DNA of 64,000 bases from Dehalococcoidales bacterium (GCA_016286345.1 JAEESL010000002.1:7051-71050); one strand, 5' to 3'. Shown: positions 7,022 to 13,033, counted from the first letter of the stretch. Made by a program: numbers and translations. The notes: a model not told the origin generated them from the sequence alone.

Positions 7022-7357
7022 ATGTGCAGTGTTATAAATGAAGAACTGGTAAATAAAGTAAAGAAAAGCCTTCCTCCGGATGACAACTTTACTCTTGTAG
7101 CCGAGACCTTCGGAGCAATGTCGGATTCCAACCGCGCAAAGATCATGTTCGCGATCGAAGACCGAGAACTGTGCGTTTCAGATCTTGCGGCTATCATCAA
7201 CGTCACTGATTCAGCAGTTTCCCAGCATCTCCGCATCCTGAGGAATCTGCGCCTGGTGAAAGCCAGAAAAGAAGGCCGTTCCATTTACTATTCACTTGAT
7301 GATGACCATATAAGTAAACTGCTCCATGTCTGTCTTGACCATACAAAGGACGGATAA
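7022..7357 (+). CDS. ArsR/SmtB family metalloregulator
   Basis: 111-aa ORF. It has SDSNRAKIMFAIEDRELCVSDLAAIINVTDSAVSQHLRILRNLRLVKARKEGRSIYYSL, including the ELCV metal-site motif and the SxxSQHL recognition helix. Confidence 0.85.
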   Translation: MCSVINEELVNKVKKSLPPDDNFTLVAETFGAMSDSNRAKIMFAIEDRELCVSDLAAIINVTDSAVSQHLRILRNLRLVKARKEGRSIYYSLDDDHISKLLHVCLDHTKDG

Positions 7358-7358
7358 T

Positions 7359-9215
7359 ATGGAAGAGCACGAAGAAGAACAAAGCCCATTACTGGTTGCC
7401 AGACTTATAATATCGGTCGTTTTGTTCGCTGCAGGTATCATCCTCGAACACAATGATCTGTCTTTTTATATTTATTTCTACATTGCTGCCCTGATACTGA
7501 GCGGATTTGAAGTCATACTCAGTGCTGTTAAAAGCACTTTAAAATTCTCCTTCTTTGATGAAAAGCAGCTTATGACGATAGCTGCCATCGGCGCCTGCTG
7601 TATCGGAAAAGTCGAAGAGTCAGCAGCTGTAATGATCCTTTATTCCGTCGGTGAATTCCTTGAGGATTATATTACAGATAAATCAAAGGACACTATCAGA
7701 GATCTTTTATCATCGGCTCCGTCAACAGCACATACCATCACGGATATCGAAAATACTCATAATATCACGGATGTTTCTCCTGAAGATGTCGAGGTGGGCA
7801 CTCTTCTCATCATCAAACCCGGCGAGAAAATACCTCTGGACGGCATTGTGATCAAAGGAGAAAGCACTGTCGATACATCATCGCTGACCGGCGAATCACT
7901 TCCTATGCCCTGCTCTCCCGATACCAAGGTACTCTCAGGTATGATCAACCAGAACGGATCTCTGATCGTTAAAACTTCCTGTCTTTTCGAAGATACTTCC
8001 ATGGCAAGGATCATTAAGCTCGTAAAAGAATCCGAAGAAAACAAAGCTCCGGCCGAAAAGTTCATTACACGCTTTGCAAGGGTCTATACCCCGATCATCC
8101 TCATACTTGCAGTGCTTGTTGCAGTTCTTCCTCCGCTGTTCTTCGGCGAAGAATGGAGTGACTGGATCTACAGAGCAATGACCCTTCTGGTGATCGCATG
8201 TCCCTGCGCTCTCGTAATAAGCGTTCCTCTCGGTTACTTCTGCGGTATCGGCAAAGCATCGAAGGAGGGCATCATTGTCAAAGGCGGAACACATATCGAT
8301 AACCTGGCAAAAGTAGATACGATCTTTATGGATAAGACCGGAACGCTTACTGACGGTGTGTTCCATATCATCGATATCATTACTACCGGTGATATGCCCA
8401 AAGATGAAATGATGGCTTACGCAGCCAGCGCAGAATCATTTTCGACTCATCCGCTGGCAAAATCCATCTCAGCTTCCACTGATAAAAGACTGAAAATCGA
8501 TAATGCCGTTGATATCACCGGCAAAGGCATCTGGGCGACCATCGAAGGCAGGGATGTCATTATCGGAAGCGACAAACTCTTGCACAGTGAGGATATTTTC
8601 CATGACCATGATCTGTGCAATCTCAAAGGGACCATCATTCATGTCTCTGTTGACAGGAAACATGTCGGATACATAGTTCTCAGCGACCAGCCAAGGAAAG
8701 GAATAGAAAATATCATTTCCAGACTCAAGAAACTCGGAATAAAGAAGACCGTCATGCTGACCGGAGACAACAGAGTATCCGCAGCATATGTAGCAAAATC
8801 TCTCGGAATTGATGAAGTTCATTCTGAATTAATGCCTGAAGAAAAAGTCAGCTATGTCAAAGAATCTGAAAAGAAAGGCACCAAGGCTGCATTTGTCGGA
8901 GACGGTATCAATGATGCCCCTGTTATTGCCATGACTGATGTCGGCATTGCCATGGGCGGTATGGGATCTGCAACTGCAATCGAAGCCAGCAATATCGTGA
9001 TCATGTCAGATCATCTGGCAAAACTGGCAGATATCATCAAGATCTCCCGTAAGACCAGAAGGATAGTTATTGAAAACATTGTGGTATCTCTCACTATTAA
9101 AGCTGTTTTCGTTACCCTGGCAGTACTGGGAATGGCCAATATGTGGCTTGCTGTATTTGCTGATGTCGGTGTGACGATACTGGCAATCCTTAATTCGATC
9201 AGGATCTTCAGATAA
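7359..9215 (+). CDS. heavy-metal translocating P1B-type ATPase (Cd/Zn/Co-type) lacking an N-terminal HMA domain
   Basis: Has the CPC motif (VIACPCALVISVPL), DKTGTLT, MLTGDN and VGDGINDAP. I placed the start at ATG 7359 (MEEHEEEQ), directly after the arsR stop; the ORF-track start at 7326 overlaps arsR. No CxxC HMA domain is visible. Confidence 0.9.
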   Translation: MEEHEEEQSPLLVARLIISVVLFAAGIILEHNDLSFYIYFYIAALILSGFEVILSAVKSTLKFSFFDEKQLMTIAAIGACCIGKVEESAAVMILYSVGEFLEDYITDKSKDTIRDLLSSAPSTAHTITDIENTHNITDVSPEDVEVGTLLIIKPGEKIPLDGIVIKGESTVDTSSLTGESLPMPCSPDTKVLSGMINQNGSLIVKTSCLFEDTSMARIIKLVKESEENKAPAEKFITRFARVYTPIILILAVLVAVLPPLFFGEEWSDWIYRAMTLLVIACPCALVISVPLGYFCGIGKASKEGIIVKGGTHIDNLAKVDTIFMDKTGTLTDGVFHIIDIITTGDMPKDEMMAYAASAESFSTHPLAKSISASTDKRLKIDNAVDITGKGIWATIEGRDVIIGSDKLLHSEDIFHDHDLCNLKGTIIHVSVDRKHVGYIVLSDQPRKGIENIISRLKKLGIKKTVMLTGDNRVSAAYVAKSLGIDEVHSELMPEEKVSYVKESEKKGTKAAFVGDGINDAPVIAMTDVGIAMGGMGSATAIEASNIVIMSDHLAKLADIIKISRKTRRIVIENIVVSLTIKAVFVTLAVLGMANMWLAVFADVGVTILAILNSIRIFR

Positions 9216-9220
9216 ACTTA

Positions 9221-9245
9221 AGGCCACCCTGCGGTGGCCTTTTTC
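9221..9245 (+). terminator. intrinsic terminator hairpin between the convergent P-type ATPase and radical-SAM genes
   Basis: AGGCCACC-ctgc-GGTGGCCT followed by TTTT on the plus strand. It lies 6 nt after the ATPase stop and 11 nt after the minus-strand rSAM stop, so it may act bidirectionally. Confidence 0.65.
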
Positions 9246-9255
9246 ATAAAAGCTG

Positions 9256-10272
9256 TTACTTACTTATCAGAGCACAGTGCGGCGATTCATAGATCTTTCC
9301 ATGAACGAAATAATTGTATGAACGGCAGCCGCCCGCACAGTATTTTCCATGGCTGCATGTTGCGCAGTTTCCTGTGAGCATATCTGATTTGAAGTGTCTG
9401 TTATAAGCAAAAGCATCGGGATCTTCCCATATATCACGGAGCTTCTTTTCGCGTAAATTGCCTTCTATGAAACAGTCTGCATACATGGATTCACAACCGC
9501 GGACATTCCCCACACTGTCGATACCGATCGAATTGATTCCGGCGGAGCATCCGCTGAACGGGACTGTTCCGTTAATGTTTCCGCGAAGACGGGCATCGTC
9601 TTCCGTATAGTAGCCGATATTATCCGCAAAACCGAGCAGAAAAGGCGCAGTCTTTGCATATTTCCTGACAAAATCTATGACCTTCCATACATCAAATGAA
9701 TACGGAACTCCGCTGTTTGCAGCATTTCCCATCGGAGAGCATGCCTGCAGCTGCCAGGCTCCGATTCCGGTATTACGGAGTATCAGATATAACTCTTCCA
9801 GTCTATCCACGTTTTCTGCATTCAGAGTGGAAATAACCGAAGTCGGGATACCGGCATCATTCAGAGTGTGTATGGCTTCTATGGCTCGTTTGTAACTGCC
9901 TGTCTGACGGTATTTATCATGAACATCCTCAGGTCCATCCAGAGAGACTGCAATGGATTCGATATTGACCTCCCGGAGAGTTTTTATGAGCTCCGGACGG
10001 AATAAGAATCCGTTTGTAATGATACAGACACGGATATTGTGATCGGTAAAGCTTTTTACGATCGTCGCCCAGTCAGGTCTCATAAAGACCTCTCCGCCGA
10101 TCAGAGATACTCTGCGACAGCCAAGATCAGCAAGCTGTTCAACGATCGAAAGACACTCTTCCGTTGTAAGTTCATTATCCCGTGCCCTGCCGCCTCTTGA
10201 TCCGCAGTAACGGCAGGAAAAAGAGCATGCCAGGGTTATTTCAAAAACACAGGAACGAAGTCTGAATTTCAT
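9256..10272 (-). CDS. radical SAM / SPASM-domain enzyme (candidate peptide/protein maturase)
   Basis: 338 aa. It has the rSAM cluster motif C16-x3-C20-x2-C23 (ACSFSCRYC) and a GGE motif (LIGGEVF). The SPASM signature is complete: C242-x12-G-x4-C260, C303-x2-C306-x5-C312-x3-C316, C333. The start codon overlaps the stop of the upstream small ORF (ATGA at 10269..10272). Confidence 0.9.
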   Translation of the reverse strand: MKFRLRSCVFEITLACSFSCRYCGSRGGRARDNELTTEECLSIVEQLADLGCRRVSLIGGEVFMRPDWATIVKSFTDHNIRVCIITNGFLFRPELIKTLREVNIESIAVSLDGPEDVHDKYRQTGSYKRAIEAIHTLNDAGIPTSVISTLNAENVDRLEELYLILRNTGIGAWQLQACSPMGNAANSGVPYSFDVWKVIDFVRKYAKTAPFLLGFADNIGYYTEDDARLRGNINGTVPFSGCSAGINSIGIDSVGNVRGCESMYADCFIEGNLREKKLRDIWEDPDAFAYNRHFKSDMLTGNCATCSHGKYCAGGCRSYNYFVHGKIYESPHCALISK

Positions 10273-10619
10273 TTTCTGTAAAGATTAAGATCTATTCCGC
10301 ATTTATCACAGGTGTTTGCGGCGTCATCAACTTTATTTCCGCAATTTGGACAGAAATTGATTGCAGGATTTTCACTGCTAACTGAACGATTCTCAGGATA
10401 TCCGGGGTCATCCACTGGTTCTTCAAACATATCAGGACCGGCATAAACATCCTCGCAGGGGTTGTCATTGACGTTAAAAGGATTTTTTTTCTGAAAAAAA
10501 TCAGGGCCTGCATAGACACCTTCGCACGGATCGGTATCTTTTTTCTTCTTTTTGAAATAATCCGGACCGGCATAAACACACTTCATCGGCTCGTGTTTAC
10601 CGAATAAACGAAAACTCAT
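10269..10619 (-). CDS. YAGPD-repeat protein B with C-terminal zinc ribbon (candidate rSAM substrate)
   Basis: 116 aa, with RBS GGAGG 8 nt upstream. It carries three repeats: KC-VYAGPDYF, PCEG-VYAGPDFF and PCED-VYAGPDMF. These are followed by a YPEN motif and CPNCG-x10-CDKCG. Confidence 0.75.
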   Translation of the reverse strand: MSFRLFGKHEPMKCVYAGPDYFKKKKKDTDPCEGVYAGPDFFQKKNPFNVNDNPCEDVYAGPDMFEEPVDDPGYPENRSVSSENPAINFCPNCGNKVDDAANTCDKCGIDLNLYRK

Positions 10620-11007
10620 TTATGACCTCCTGGCACTGACAATTTATTGTTGTCGTGGTGAACCGCACTCTGGACAGAATTTTGACGGTACTTCAAATTT
10701 GAAGCCACAGCTGGTACAGTAATTCTTTTCGTCACTATCACTTCCGTCTGCATGATTTTCAGGATATACGGGTGTTTTATACGTGTCCGGCATAGCAGCG
10801 CCCATAAACATAAAGCCTTGAGGGTTTCTGTTGTAGAAGTCAGGACCGGCATAAGTCATCATCATCGTCTGGTCAGACGGAGGAGTTGAAGGAAACGAAG
10901 GTTTATCCTGTGGAGTCACTTCAGAATTGGATTCATTGCTGTCTTTCTCCTGAGACTGATCCTCTAATCCCTGCTTATTTGCAAAATAATCAGGACCGGC
11001 ATAAACA
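10433..11007 (-). repeat. five dispersed copies of a roughly 17-nt coding repeat (plus-strand word CAGGACCGGCATAAACA and variants) encoding YAGPD
   Basis: Copies lie at 10433..10449, 10502..10518 (diverged: cagggcctgcatagaca), 10562..10578, 10841..10857 and 10991..11007. All are in the reading frame of the two small ORFs. Confidence 0.75.
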
Positions 11008-11039
11008 CATTTCATCGGTTCATTAGGATTTTCAATCAT
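10644..11039 (-). CDS. YAGPD-repeat protein A with C-terminal zinc ribbon (candidate rSAM substrate, paralog of B)
   Basis: 131 aa, with RBS AAGGAGG upstream. It carries KC-VYAGPDYF and a Cys-less MMMT-YAGPDFY copy, then YPEN and CTSCG-x10-CPECG. The N-terminal 13-mer EPMKCVYAGPDYF is identical to protein B. Confidence 0.75.
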   Translation of the reverse strand: MIENPNEPMKCVYAGPDYFANKQGLEDQSQEKDSNESNSEVTPQDKPSFPSTPPSDQTMMMTYAGPDFYNRNPQGFMFMGAAMPDTYKTPVYPENHADGSDSDEKNYCTSCGFKFEVPSKFCPECGSPRQQ

Positions 11040-11185
11040 AACTGACCTCCTTAATTCATATCTGTCTAATATAAAGCACTGTTTATACGGATATTTTACC
11101 TTGTGACATTATCATAAATAAATACTAAATAACCAGCAGCATATACAACATCAATAATAGTCGAAAGATATCTGTGAACAGAGTG

Positions 11186-11221
11186 TTAAAAAATACACCC
11201 CCTTGGGATCAAGGGAGTGTA
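11186..11221 (-). terminator. intrinsic terminator of rho
   Basis: Minus strand reads TACACTCCCTT-gatccc-AAGGGGGTGTA (one mismatch) followed by TTTTTTAA, 37 nt after the rho stop. Confidence 0.65.
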
Positions 11222-11257
11222 TTCAAAACCTTCCACTTTTAACTGGTTAAGCGTTTG

Positions 11258-13033
11258 CTAGACTGCCTTGTAACGATCTTTCATGATCGACTCAAGGAAT
11301 GCGGCATTATTGGATGTACGCTTAAGAGAATCTATGACTCTCTGTGAAGCTTCCTGTGTAGTAGCATTGGGTGAATCAGTTGCGATTGCACCGACCATTC
11401 TTCTGAGAAGTCTGGTGAGAGTGAATTCATTCTTTTCATACAGGAATTCATCCCGTCGGGTCGATGACTTGGTGATATCAACGGCAGGATAGCATCCGCG
11501 CTCTGCAAGCTTTCTGTCGAGATGGATCTCCATATTGCCTGTACCTTTGAACTCTTCATAGATCAGGTCATCCATACGTGAACCTGTATCGACCAGACAT
11601 GTTGCAATGATCGTCAGGGAACCGCCTTCCTCAATGTTTCGGGCAGCGCCGAAGAATCTTTTGCCGGGATGGAGAGCAACGGGATCGATACCGCCTGAAA
11701 GAGTTCGTCCGGAGGAAGGAAGTGCCAGGTTATATGCCCTTGTAAGTCTGGTGATACCATCCAAGAGAAGGAATACATCCTTTCCTGCTTCTACCATTCG
11801 CTTGGCTTTTTCGATGGCAAGTTCGGCAACTCTGGTCTGGTTCTCTTCGGCTTCATCGAATGTCGCTGCAATAACTTCGCCGCGGACACTTCTACGCATA
11901 TCGGTGACTTCTTCAGGTCGTTCACCGATAAGACAAACGATCACATGGATATCCTTATAATTCTCTTCCACTGCATTCGCAATGGCTTTCATGAGCATTG
12001 TTTTACCGGCCTTGGGAGGTGCAACAATAAGACCTCTCTGCCCGCAGCCGATAGGACAGAAAAGATCTATGATCCTGGTAGCTATAACATCGGAAGTGGT
12101 TTCCATGGTTATTCGTCGGTCAGGGAAAATAGGAGTGAGCTGGGTGAAAACTTTTCTCTGACGAGATTTTTCAGGAGAGATATCATTGATTCTCTCTACT
12201 CTGACCATACTGTAATATTTTTCTTTATCTTTGCCCGGTCGTGAAACACCGACCACATAGTCCCCTGTTCTGAGACCGAATCTCTTGATCTGAGACTGGG
12301 CAACATAAATGTCATCGGCACTGGGTAACAATGAATCCTGTCGGAGGAATCCGTAACCCTCGCCCAATATATCCAGAACACCTGAACAAAGTTTGTAGCC
12401 CTGACCCTGCTGTTCAATATAATGTGCCATCAGCTGCTCAACGACATCCTGCTTTGAATGTGTTGCAATGTCGGTAAGACCTGCGTCTGCTGCCATCTGG
12501 ATCAATTTGACGGAATCGGTTTCATAAAGCTGATCCATCGTCGGAACTGATATATCAGGATTTTTGGGATCATGAGAACCGGCATTCTGATATCTTCCGT
12601 TATAAAATTTTCCGTGTCGTTCTGTGTTAACGGCTTTAGCTGCATCTTCAGTATTTACATCAGTTGCAGCATCCGATGAAGATGCCGTCTCTGCAAGTTT
12701 TTCTTCAGCTGCAGACTTTTCCTTCTCGATCAGCCGTTTGGTCTTCAAAACACGTTTTGTGATTCTTCTTACAGGCGCAGCTTTTACTGATTCTGTTTCA
12801 GTTTTTTCCTGGGCCTCAGCAGGTACCGCTGCAACAGCCTTCTCAGGAACAGTTGCTGCAGTTTCAGTCTTGGGTTTTCTGCCGCGTTTTTTTACCTCTG
12901 GAACAGTTTCTGATTTATTATCAGCAGCTTTCTTTTCAGATGTCTTTTTTACAGCAGTTTTTCTTACAGGCTTTTTGATTTCTACCGCAGATTCTTCTTT
13001 GGTTTCTTCAGTTTTCTTTGTTCGAGGTGCCAT
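11258..13033 (-). CDS. rho: transcription termination factor Rho with a roughly 165-aa low-complexity N-terminal extension
   Basis: 591 aa. The core has the Rho N-terminal helix bundle ([22 protein letters not shown]), the CSD-like RNA-binding part ([14 protein letters not shown]), a Walker A (APPKAGKT) and the C-terminal ATPase. Residues 1-165 are K/E/A/T-rich. Confidence 0.95.

Follow-up and report, generated by a model that had tools for sequence, protein, structure and literature searches.

A radical SAM/SPASM enzyme and its V-Y-x-G-P-repeat partner proteins: a candidate tyrosine-modification system beside the splicease-type families

Spliceases (PlpX and relatives) are radical S-adenosylmethionine (SAM)/SPASM enzymes that remove the equivalent of tyramine (C8H9NO, -135 Da) from X-Y-G sites, and to our knowledge they provide the only known ribosomal route to backbone ketoamides. 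Proteins as well as short tags serve as their substrates (PMC11414181, PMC10533398), whilst their natural end products and native-host functions remain elusive according to a review (PMC9811515). Here we describe a three-gene operon (9256-11039, minus strand) in a 64,000 nt stretch of DNA from a Dehalococcoidales bacterium (GCA_016286345.1, JAEESL010000002.1:7051-71050; hereafter the window), for which the listing of open reading frames (ORFs) and the minus-strand sequence give a 131-aa ORF, a 116-aa ORF and the gene for a 338-aa radical SAM/SPASM enzyme. The two small proteins, A and B, carry copies of a Tyr-centred repeat that very probably is the substrate of the enzyme. More tentatively, we read the locus as a self-contained operon in which a clade beside the splicease-type families modifies the Tyr of each repeat, possibly by excising tyramine to leave ketoamides. 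The genes and the elements within them are as follows:

9256..10272, minus strand: radical SAM/SPASM enzyme gene, 338 aa (ORF call)
10269..10619, minus strand: protein B gene, 116 aa, predicted substrate (ORF call)
10644..11039, minus strand: protein A gene, 131 aa, predicted substrate, paralogue of B (ORF call)
10989..11006, minus strand: repeat A1, V12-D17, context EPMKCVYAGPDYF (six-frame motif scan)
10839..10856, minus strand: repeat A2, T62-D67, context QTMMMTYAGPDFY (six-frame motif scan)
10755..10766, minus strand: second conserved motif in A, Y92-P-E-N95 (partner logo)
10665..10718, minus strand: zinc ribbon of A, CTSC-x10-CPEC (several ribbon families match, none at cut-off; PF13240 at 21.9 bits against 25)
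10560..10577, minus strand: repeat B1, V15-Y-A-G-P-D20, context EPMKCVYAGPDYF (six-frame motif scan)
10500..10517, minus strand: repeat B2, V35-D40, context DPCEGVYAGPDFF (six-frame motif scan)
10431..10448, minus strand: repeat B3, V58-D63, context NPCEDVYAGPDMF (six-frame motif scan)
10389..10400, minus strand: second conserved motif in B, Y74-P-E-N77, a possible docking site or further target (partner logo)
10299..10352, minus strand: zinc ribbon of B, CPNC-x10-CDKC (PF13240 at 31.9 bits, above its cut-off of 25)

Proteins A and B are paralogous (BLASTP E=9e-15), with three copies of [VT]YAGPD in B and two in A, and five of the seven YAGP tetrapeptides in a six-frame translation of the 64 kb fall inside the 247 residues of the two proteins. 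Protein B runs from an N-terminal SFRLFGK (start MSFRLFGKHEP) through three VYAGPD repeats and GYPENR to a zinc ribbon, and protein A from two [VT]YAGPD repeats through VYPENH to a zinc ribbon. A Cys stands at -2 or -3 in four of the five repeats, and neither protein matches a Nif11/NHLP leader in NCBIfam or Pfam. The stop of the 131-aa ORF and the start of the 116-aa ORF are 24 nt apart, with ribosome-binding sites ahead of both (AAGGAGG and AGGAGG, respectively), and the start ATG of the enzyme gene overlaps the TGA of the 116-aa ORF (ATGA, 10269-10272), an overlap by which protein B is predicted to be translationally coupled to the enzyme. The overlap, the 24-nt gap, the paralogy of the small ORFs and their GGAGG sites had all been reported in a first-pass annotation of this stretch and were confirmed.

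The enzyme contains the cluster-binding radical-SAM motif C16-x3-C20-x2-C23 (residues 16-23; 10227-10204), a glycine-rich, SAM-binding GGE motif at residues 59-61 (G59-G60-E61) and a SPASM signature of C242-x12-G-x4-C260, C303-x2-C306-x5-C312-x3-C316 and C333 (residues 242-333; 9549-9274), and C16/C20/C23, GGE and all seven SPASM cysteines are invariant in 24 homologues. It belongs to the Radical_SAM superfamily (PF04055, 108.8 bits; threshold 29.5) and to the SPASM subgroup (PF13186, 29.6 bits; cut-off 21.5), whose C-terminal seven-Cys signature, CX9-15GX4C ... CX2CX5CX3C ... C, denotes two auxiliary clusters. The translation thus bears out the 338-aa enzyme with radical-SAM motif, GGE and full SPASM signature of the first description, and the protein contains neither an RRE domain nor a C-terminal extension. 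Four further cysteines outside the radical-SAM and SPASM motifs (C8, C40, C52 and C178) are also invariant in the 24 homologues (64-70% identity) and are not conserved in more distant relatives.

The pairing of enzyme and repeat was followed across genomes from both sides. In the enzyme-first direction, two conserved peptide patterns were run against GTDB, each species being represented by a single genome, and 283 species proved to have a relative; 80 loci were kept, and 76 of these, each of a different species, were evaluable in that they held a complete enzyme gene and enough upstream DNA. In all 76 (enzyme 64-71% identical) a motif-bearing ORF adjoins the enzyme gene. At 75 of them an ORF bearing YA[GASP]P lies on the same strand and ends immediately upstream of the enzyme gene, and at the 76th (L075) a convergent partner (MACIYAPPEIM...EYPFTY) lies just downstream of it. 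The partners hold 250 YA[GASP]P motifs in 15,974 residues, compared with three in the 130,430 residues of the 581 other ORFs of at least 100 aa at the same loci, i.e. 1.57 versus 0.0023 motifs per 100 residues, a ~680-fold difference. The commonest flanking gene cluster occurs at six of the 76 loci, and no protease, exporter or transporter, RRE, immunity gene or recurrent third gene is linked across them, because no other gene is conserved nearby. The hosts are rumen and gut Clostridia, many of them Lachnospiraceae judging by the titles of the metagenome-assembled genomes, and the viral contigs scanned held no copy of the system.

Starting from the motif, a repeat profile led to six proteins that were examined, each of which is followed directly by a ~337-aa Radical_SAM/SPASM gene, the neighbourhoods being unrelated in other respects; the three-unit pseudo-profile used returned only proteins of 57-90 aa and is no measure of how frequent long repeat proteins are. 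Additionally, a scan of metagenome contigs with a DNA pattern for three YAGP codon sets gave 119 loci. V-YAGP-type proteins are encoded at 17 of these, and at all 15 with flanking room the enzyme lies alongside (56-71% identity); the remaining two stop at the contig edge. The rest are either low-complexity DNA or members of a secreted, glycine-rich Y-x-G-P-G-G family (30 loci, none with the enzyme). As these unrelated loci carry YAGP without a radical SAM gene, the bare tetrapeptide is not specific whilst the extended motif described below is, and we treated them as negative controls rather than counting them against the pairing. A word-indexed homology search with the 116-aa protein retrieved only five relatives, the repeats being too short, and the linkers too variable, for such a search. 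The first-pass proposal that the repeat proteins are the substrates of the enzyme is therefore supported from both sides (76/76 enzyme-first; 6/6 and 15/15 motif-first), and extended-motif proteins lacking the radical SAM gene, whose abundance it had named as evidence to the contrary, were not found in the motif-first searches.

The Y-x-G-P-G-G proteins themselves are small; they have a signal peptide and tandem Y-x-G-P-G-G-x-x units flanked by Cys, end in a Cys-rich tail and come from marine, soil and freshwater contigs (e.g. L104, L105, L106, L107, L118, L119, L156, L178 and L217, with ~20 more).

A logo of the 250 repeats, with Tyr as position 0 (the search pattern itself dictated Tyr, Ala(+1) and Pro(+3)), has Pro enriched at -6/-5; Met, Ile, Phe or Thr at -4 (Met in 141/250); Val at -1 (213/250); Tyr at 0; Gly at +2 (208/250), otherwise Ala, Ser or Pro; Pro at +3; Glu, Asp, Pro or Gly at +4 (Asp/Glu in 103/250); and Met or Phe at +6. 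Cys occupies -2 in 42 of the 250. Read more loosely, the partners also contain VYMGP, VYNGP, VYGGP, VYACP, AYFGP and VYDGP, and because these variants stand in the same register there is no constraint on the residue following Tyr, which leaves V-Y-x-G-P as the core. VYGGP, and with it Y-G, was found beside VYAGP at L003, L025 and L073, the residue after Tyr being mostly Ala and only occasionally Gly. The extended motif is P-x-[MIF]-x-x-V-Y-x-G-P, and Ala(+1), Asp(+4), Cys and the zinc ribbon are dispensable. As such, the YAGPD repeat first reported holds for the window, with its three and two copies, whereas its Asp and Ala and the accompanying Cys are not needed across relatives. The label of zinc-ribbon proteins likewise fits A and B, both of which end in CxxC-x10-CxxC, but it names an optional feature: a four-Cys ribbon is present in 59 of 75 partners (two ribbons in some) and missing in 16.

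Partner length runs from 79 to 406 aa with a median of 209, the composition is rich in Pro, Glu, Ala and Gly, and each partner has one to seven copies, or more if variant repeats are included; Val(-1), Tyr(0) and Pro(+3) are near-invariant whilst the linkers vary freely, and about half of the Tyr residues of the partners fall in repeats. A transmembrane-like segment was seen in one partner only and an obvious signal peptide in none of those inspected. L001, like the window, has paralogous partners in tandem. Furthermore, a second motif containing Y-P is present in 73 of 75 partners, usually once, compared with an expectation of 42 and a maximum of 51 in 200 composition-preserving shuffles; its logo is K-K-Y-P-[ED]-[NRS]-[AYFH]-x-[ED], and it often lies inside an N-terminal M-K-N-F-F-K-x-L-F-G-K-K-Y-P-E-R segment.

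At a few loci the motif tail is apparently fused to other domains, i.e. a KsgA 16S rRNA dimethyltransferase (L023:2786-3973), a GNAT acetyltransferase (L061:3055-3984), an FHA domain (L062:3296-3979) and a C-terminal transmembrane helix (L094:2080-2403). Some of these fusions could be assembly frameshifts, and that at L023 may be one because KsgA is a separate upstream gene at six loci.

In a whole-protein profile search, no NCBIfam model reaches its own cut-off for the enzyme. The best match is TIGR04103 (238.7 bits, E=9e-71, full length including SPASM; cut-off 725) and the second TIGR03913 (227.9 bits, E=2e-67, full length; cut-off 591.75), followed by WgkB (158 bits), AhbD (TIGR04545; 141.8, cut-off 500), TIGR04133 (139.6, cut-off 425), MftC (TIGR03962; 133.9, cut-off 265), StsB (132.5, cut-off 625), NirJ (TIGR04051; 116, cut-off 515), rSAM_ACGX (96, cut-off 400) and SkfB (85.4, cut-off 300). 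The first-pass annotation had recognized no named family, and this stands: no family-level cut-off of NCBIfam or Pfam is reached, and no such family exists for the small proteins. Nor does the enzyme fall in a clade of unrelated known function, AhbD and NirJ lying far below their cut-offs. Its relatives at E<=1e-20 number more than 1600, the top 120 being 64-70% identical, and the few with a labelled source are proteins of Lachnospiraceae or Clostridia metagenome-assembled genomes and are annotated just as "radical SAM protein". HMMER retrieved 520 clusters at E<=1e-30 from 1.84 billion cluster representatives, identity falling from 57% directly to <=45%, and among the 114 nearest full-length 50%-cluster representatives the matches at E<=1e-100 are to TIGR04103 (four) and TIGR03913 (three) and to no other family. 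Against annotated plasmids, tblastn gave the "GDL motif peptide-associated radical SAM/SPASM maturase" of Burkholderia and Azospirillum at 35% and the Nostoc "nif11-class peptide radical SAM maturase 3" at 34%, with mftC next at ~30%. In a pairwise matrix TIGR04103, TIGR03913 and an Aureibacter homologue share 46-48% mutual identity and are each 33-36% identical to the window clade, which is therefore a separate, neighbouring clade; it is set apart from the splicease-type families by profile scores and annotated members rather than by proven-splicease sequences. A sequence search of the PDB returned only distant radical SAM/SPASM structures (SkfB, BlsE, SuiB, CteB and PqqE), and no natural enzyme-substrate fusion was present among 150 distant representatives.

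We take IPR026482 to be the InterPro entry built from TIGR04103, so that TIGR04103 would presumably be the PlpX splicease family, and lipoproteins of Bacteroidetes associated with TIGR04134 have YG-x-P sites. PlpX has been assigned to IPR026482 (PMC11002830). The TIGR04103 gene of Nostoc is flanked on one side by a Nif11 precursor that ends in GGRGSIALYGLPPELF (...ALYGLPPELF) and on the other by an overlapping 71-aa PlpY-like ORF; as the splice tag of PlpA is PIRPLYGLPI (PMC10533398) and a splicease X/Y/A gene architecture has been described (PMC11414181), the match of this locus to both gives independent support for TIGR04103 as splicease-type. Pro at Tyr+3 is common to LYGLP and VYAGP. The TIGR03913 gene of Burkholderia comes after genes for three proteins, one DUF1843 and two DUF1842-DUF1843, which have the sites ...TPYGVAI..., ...AMYGVAI... 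and ...PMYGVGL..., then GDL. Three Aureibacter DUF1843 paralogues beside a homologous enzyme start MYQVLYAAGIREA, MYLPMYAASIREA and MIIQPYGAGIREA (LYAAG, MYAAS and PYGAG), an interchange from which it follows that Y-A and Y-G occupy the same site in nature. Both of the nearest named families thus pair with hydrophobic-Tyr-Gly/Ala sites. That TIGR04103 and TIGR03913 are the closest relatives suggests a specific chemistry, and the change of -2 Da per repeat expected in the first-pass annotation may therefore be the wrong mass.

Two plasmid loci of the TIGR03913 group have features of their own. The Aureibacter trio (Aureibacter tunicatorum plasmid pAT1, L100:1647-2360) is in tandem and adjoins a TIGR03913-like radical SAM gene and a SAM methyltransferase gene. 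On a B. pseudomallei plasmid (L093:2204-3679), the GDL-motif radical SAM/SPASM maturase has its own C-terminal CxxC...CxxC ribbon (CRNCDGYVHAGEQTCPHCGG); in the window the ribbon is on the substrate proteins.

Set beside TIGR04103 and the spliceases, the window system shares a site composed of a hydrophobic residue, Tyr, a small residue and Pro at Tyr+3, 34% enzyme identity to the Nostoc member and the possibility of several sites per substrate. It differs in that its site is V-Y-x-G-P, usually with Y-A rather than Y-G, a resemblance to the canonical X-Y-G motif that falls short of a match, and in having neither a Nif11/NHLP leader nor a PlpY/RRE gene, whereas the Nostoc comparator has both a leader and a Y gene; the ~80-aa C-terminal extension of the Nostoc enzyme is also absent. 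Unlike those of splicease systems, the predicted window-type substrates are disordered zinc-ribbon proteins with one to seven or more repeats, from Clostridia of the anaerobic gut and rumen. TIGR03913 resembles the window in being encoded directly after tandem paralogous substrate-like proteins, in its 35% identity over the full length (B. pseudomallei member), in its [MP]-Y-G-V site, with Y-A-A in the Aureibacter paralogues, and in that its presumed substrates are proteins and not short peptides. These, however, are folded (a beta-barrel and a helical DUF1843 domain) with a single site apiece where the window family has repeats along a disordered chain; the enzyme, ~490 aa long, has a C-terminal extension, and the hosts are Proteobacteria and Bacteroidota. 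MftC (TIGR03962) is likewise a radical SAM/SPASM enzyme acting on a Val-Tyr pair, and plasmid-borne mftC gives a full-length match at ~30% identity; yet the Val-Tyr of MftA (...GVY) is single, C-terminal and decarboxylated, with the chaperone MftB and the peptidase MftE being required, whereas in the window system Val-Tyr recurs at internal positions, and the neighbourhood has no mft genes.

Freyrasin-type ranthipeptides and the NxxC, triceptide, ACGX and His-Xaa-Ser systems also combine a SPASM enzyme with an ORF in which a short motif recurs, each repeat being expected to receive one modification. In contrast to these RiPP systems (peptides made on the ribosome and modified after translation), none of whose models is close, the window family has no conserved Cys donor, and its partners reach 406 aa without leader/core organization, protease or exporter. 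A triceptide-type C-beta cross-link at position 3 is impossible because the third residue of Y-x-G is Gly. The conserved Cys donor per unit that marks sactipeptides and ranthipeptides is not found either, given its presence in 42 of the 250 repeats and the lack of any Cys near the repeats in several partners.

On our preferred reading, the enzyme would bind the adjacent, intrinsically disordered small proteins, and 5'-deoxyadenosyl radical chemistry would act on a Tyr-centred site, one event per P-x-[MIF]-x-x-V-Y-x-G-P repeat; Tyr would accordingly be the target residue, with a single modification predicted in each repeat. Docking would probably involve the single-copy K-Y-P-[ED]-[NRS] motif and/or the N-terminal amphipathic F-x-x-L-F-G-K segment, a proposal modelled on the activating helix in splicease leaders, which PlpY or the RhaA leader supplies (PMC11414181). 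A tyramine equivalent would then be cut from the Tyr and the backbone rejoined, splicease chemistry being, by analogy, the most likely. That the reaction is indeed tyramine excision, giving alpha-keto-beta-valine at each site, we regard as possible, if somewhat short of probable, and several points weigh against it. The canonical splicease site is X-Y-G, whereas the residue after Tyr reads here as mostly Ala and also as M, N, Y, F, D or C, and the accessible literature yielded no published evidence of a splicease accepting a residue other than Gly at this place. The enzyme forms a separate clade, and radical SAM/SPASM enzymes this far apart often differ in chemistry. The presumed equation of TIGR04103 with the PlpX family draws on the anatomy of the Nostoc locus, not on a comparison with the PlpX sequence, and the splicing of the DUF1842/1843 proteins, which a 2024 structure paper treats as being of unknown function, is a presumption. 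In addition, the second motif, K-Y-P-x-N, also has a Tyr that could be the real target or a cross-link partner. Biological roles such as multivalent protease-inhibitor warheads or a regulatory tag are speculative.

All the evidence for pairing applies equally if the same enzyme and substrates undergo another Tyr chemistry, i.e. one cross-link, desaturation, hydroxylation or epimerization per repeat; this is the main rival, and we hold it to be only a little less likely than splicing. In its cross-linking form, the Tyr ring or C-beta would be joined by a C-C or C-O bond to Val-1, Pro+3 or the -4 residue, or the Tyr of VYxGP to K-Y-P-x-N. That the enzyme stands in a clade apart, sharing 33-36% identity with the splicease-type families, is in keeping with this, as are the significant matches to WgkB (which makes a Lys-Trp cross-link), MftC and sactipeptide/ranthipeptide-type maturases and the fact that most repeats are not X-Y-G; the -4 hydrophobic residue, Pro+3 and Met/Phe at +6 could be cross-link partners and not only recognition elements. 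However, the two top-scoring named families both go with hydrophobic-Tyr-Gly/Ala sites, among the flanking residues none that offers a reactive side chain is invariant apart from Val, Tyr and Pro, and the many residues tolerated at +1 and +2 make a defined side-chain cross-link a poorer fit than a backbone reaction at Tyr. A related, unlikely possibility is an intracellular protein-modification system, not an antibiotic-type RiPP, that uses a chemistry other than tyramine splicing on a portable disordered tag (K-Y-P-x-N plus V-Y-x-G-P) that would occur naturally also on KsgA, GNAT, FHA and membrane-anchored proteins. This would amount to a new regulatory or structural protein modification, and the sister system with [R/K]-Y-A-G-P repeats (enzyme at 35-37%) described below would widen the enzyme-tag family.

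Two further explanations depart from the Tyr. A thioether of the sactipeptide/ranthipeptide kind, running from the Cys that precedes some repeats (C-V-Y-A-G-P) to a nearby carbon, would suit the Cys at -2/-3 in four of the five window repeats, and thioethers are a common product of SPASM enzymes, with the StsB and SkfB models matching significantly. We nevertheless consider it extremely improbable: Cys at -2 is confined to 42 of the 250 repeats, in many partners the only Cys are those of the ribbon, in some (e.g. L019, L030 and L051) there is none at all, and because the donor is usually absent a thioether is not the general chemistry of the family. Alternatively, the small proteins might be accessory subunits, e.g. 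electron carriers or regulators with a rubredoxin-like zinc or iron ribbon, for an enzyme that acts on an unlinked small molecule or cofactor in the manner of AhbD/NirJ. The AhbD and NirJ models match at E 1e-33 to 1e-41, the ribbon is frequent (59/75) and no protease or exporter is linked. These scores, however, are far under the cut-offs and under the peptide-maturase matches, and the flanking genes are variable and unrelated to heme synthesis, unlike the heme-biosynthesis context of AhbD/NirJ-type enzymes. Moreover, a variable number of repeats in a disordered, fast-evolving chain is typical of substrates rather than subunits, and the motif segment appears on unrelated domains (KsgA, GNAT, FHA and a transmembrane helix). 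The ribbon is missing in 16 of 75 partners whereas the repeat is universal; as only the repeat is indispensable, an accessory role is very improbable.

The logic of the system, a SPASM enzyme with an adjacent substrate bearing reiterated sites in a splicease-like neighbourhood, is known. What appears to be new is the enzyme clade, the V-Y-x-G-P/K-Y-P-x-N architecture, the disordered zinc-ribbon proteins, the layout free of leader, RRE, protease and exporter, and the host range; searches of NCBIfam, Pfam and the literature found no curated family or relevant publication on the motif and the enzyme clade. Published splicease mining was keyed on YG-rich neighbours (PMC10849128), and since the substrates here are mostly Y-A the family was probably invisible to it. 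The family is large (283 species genomes from two peptide patterns alone), with the simplest genetics, a substrate and an enzyme, and constitutes a solid lead in being widely distributed and experimentally tractable. If splicing is correct, the site rule would widen from X-Y-G to X-Y-x-G-P, and a compact 338-aa leaderless, RRE-free enzyme with a short tag would be useful for protein engineering; if the chemistry is another, disordered proteins would be the targets of a new Tyr-directed radical modification. In both cases, cultivable anaerobes would allow a test of what such modifications do physiologically.

Among wider homologues of the enzyme, pairing persists at 44-45% identity with a changed gene order: L095 (44%) has an upstream ORF of the form QYPDS...MVYFGP...ribbon, and L094 (45%) a downstream ORF of the form ribbon...SYPHN...AVYAGPP...transmembrane segment. 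At 39% identity the upstream ORF of L099 ends ...DVYGPPPPSLFGDD, i.e. ...DVYGPPPP..., whilst the homologues of Agathobacter rectalis (L091) and L096, also at 39%, have no motif ORF nearby, so that pairing fades at about this level. At three loci with an enzyme at 35-37% identity (L117, L155 and L220), the adjoining ORF carries [R/K]-Y-A-G-P repeats behind an N-terminal hydrophobic segment, which suggests that X-Y-A-G-P is a general site for this enzyme branch, with X variable. The ORFs of this candidate sister system (L117:2473-2946, minus strand; L155:11704-12204, plus strand; L220:1105-1605, plus strand) are on low-GC metagenome contigs and have three to four repeats, e.g. EPVRYAGPPMPQPSP.

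Two of the distant loci differ in their surroundings. In the cultured Lachnospiraceae member Agathobacter rectalis DFI.5.28 (L091:3995-5149, in a 251 kb record labelled plasmid), the radical SAM/SPASM gene is followed by an MFS transporter gene and lies just after fusA-tuf. At L098 (1378-3589), a 41%-identical homologue is in tandem with a second radical SAM/SPASM gene, with genes nearby for a sulfatase, a sulfotransferase-like protein and a 184-aa protein that starts MAEIGKYGMAEVLGGYAT, and may represent a different, multi-enzyme variant.

Within the window the operon is bounded by two hairpins:

11198..11216, minus strand: terminator-like hairpin and T-run after rho, upstream boundary of the unit (hairpin scan)
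9220..9241, minus strand: terminator-like hairpin of 9 pairs (6 G-C) after the enzyme gene, downstream boundary (hairpin scan)

The insulation of the unit by hairpins, as first proposed, is hence borne out by terminator-like structures on both sides. Between the upstream hairpin and the 131-aa ORF lies an AT-rich spacer, in which a consensus scan of the minus strand found no promoter, in line with the earlier failure to find convincing hexamers; no Rfam family reaches threshold within 9000-11400. The neighbouring genes rho, cadA, arsR, a transaldolase-like gene and pyrG were in none of the loci examined for synteny, and synteny with rho/cadA was rejected as meaningful on account of this absence. 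The Rho protein (11258-13033, minus strand; 591 aa) has a low-complexity N-terminal extension rich in Lys, Glu, Ala and Thr, which makes up its first ~150 residues before the conserved part. On the other side (7022-9215, plus strand), the gene for an ArsR-family regulator (111 aa) overlaps the start of that for a 629-aa P-type heavy-metal ATPase, and this pair is convergent with the radical SAM operon, the hairpin region at 9220-9241 being common to both units.

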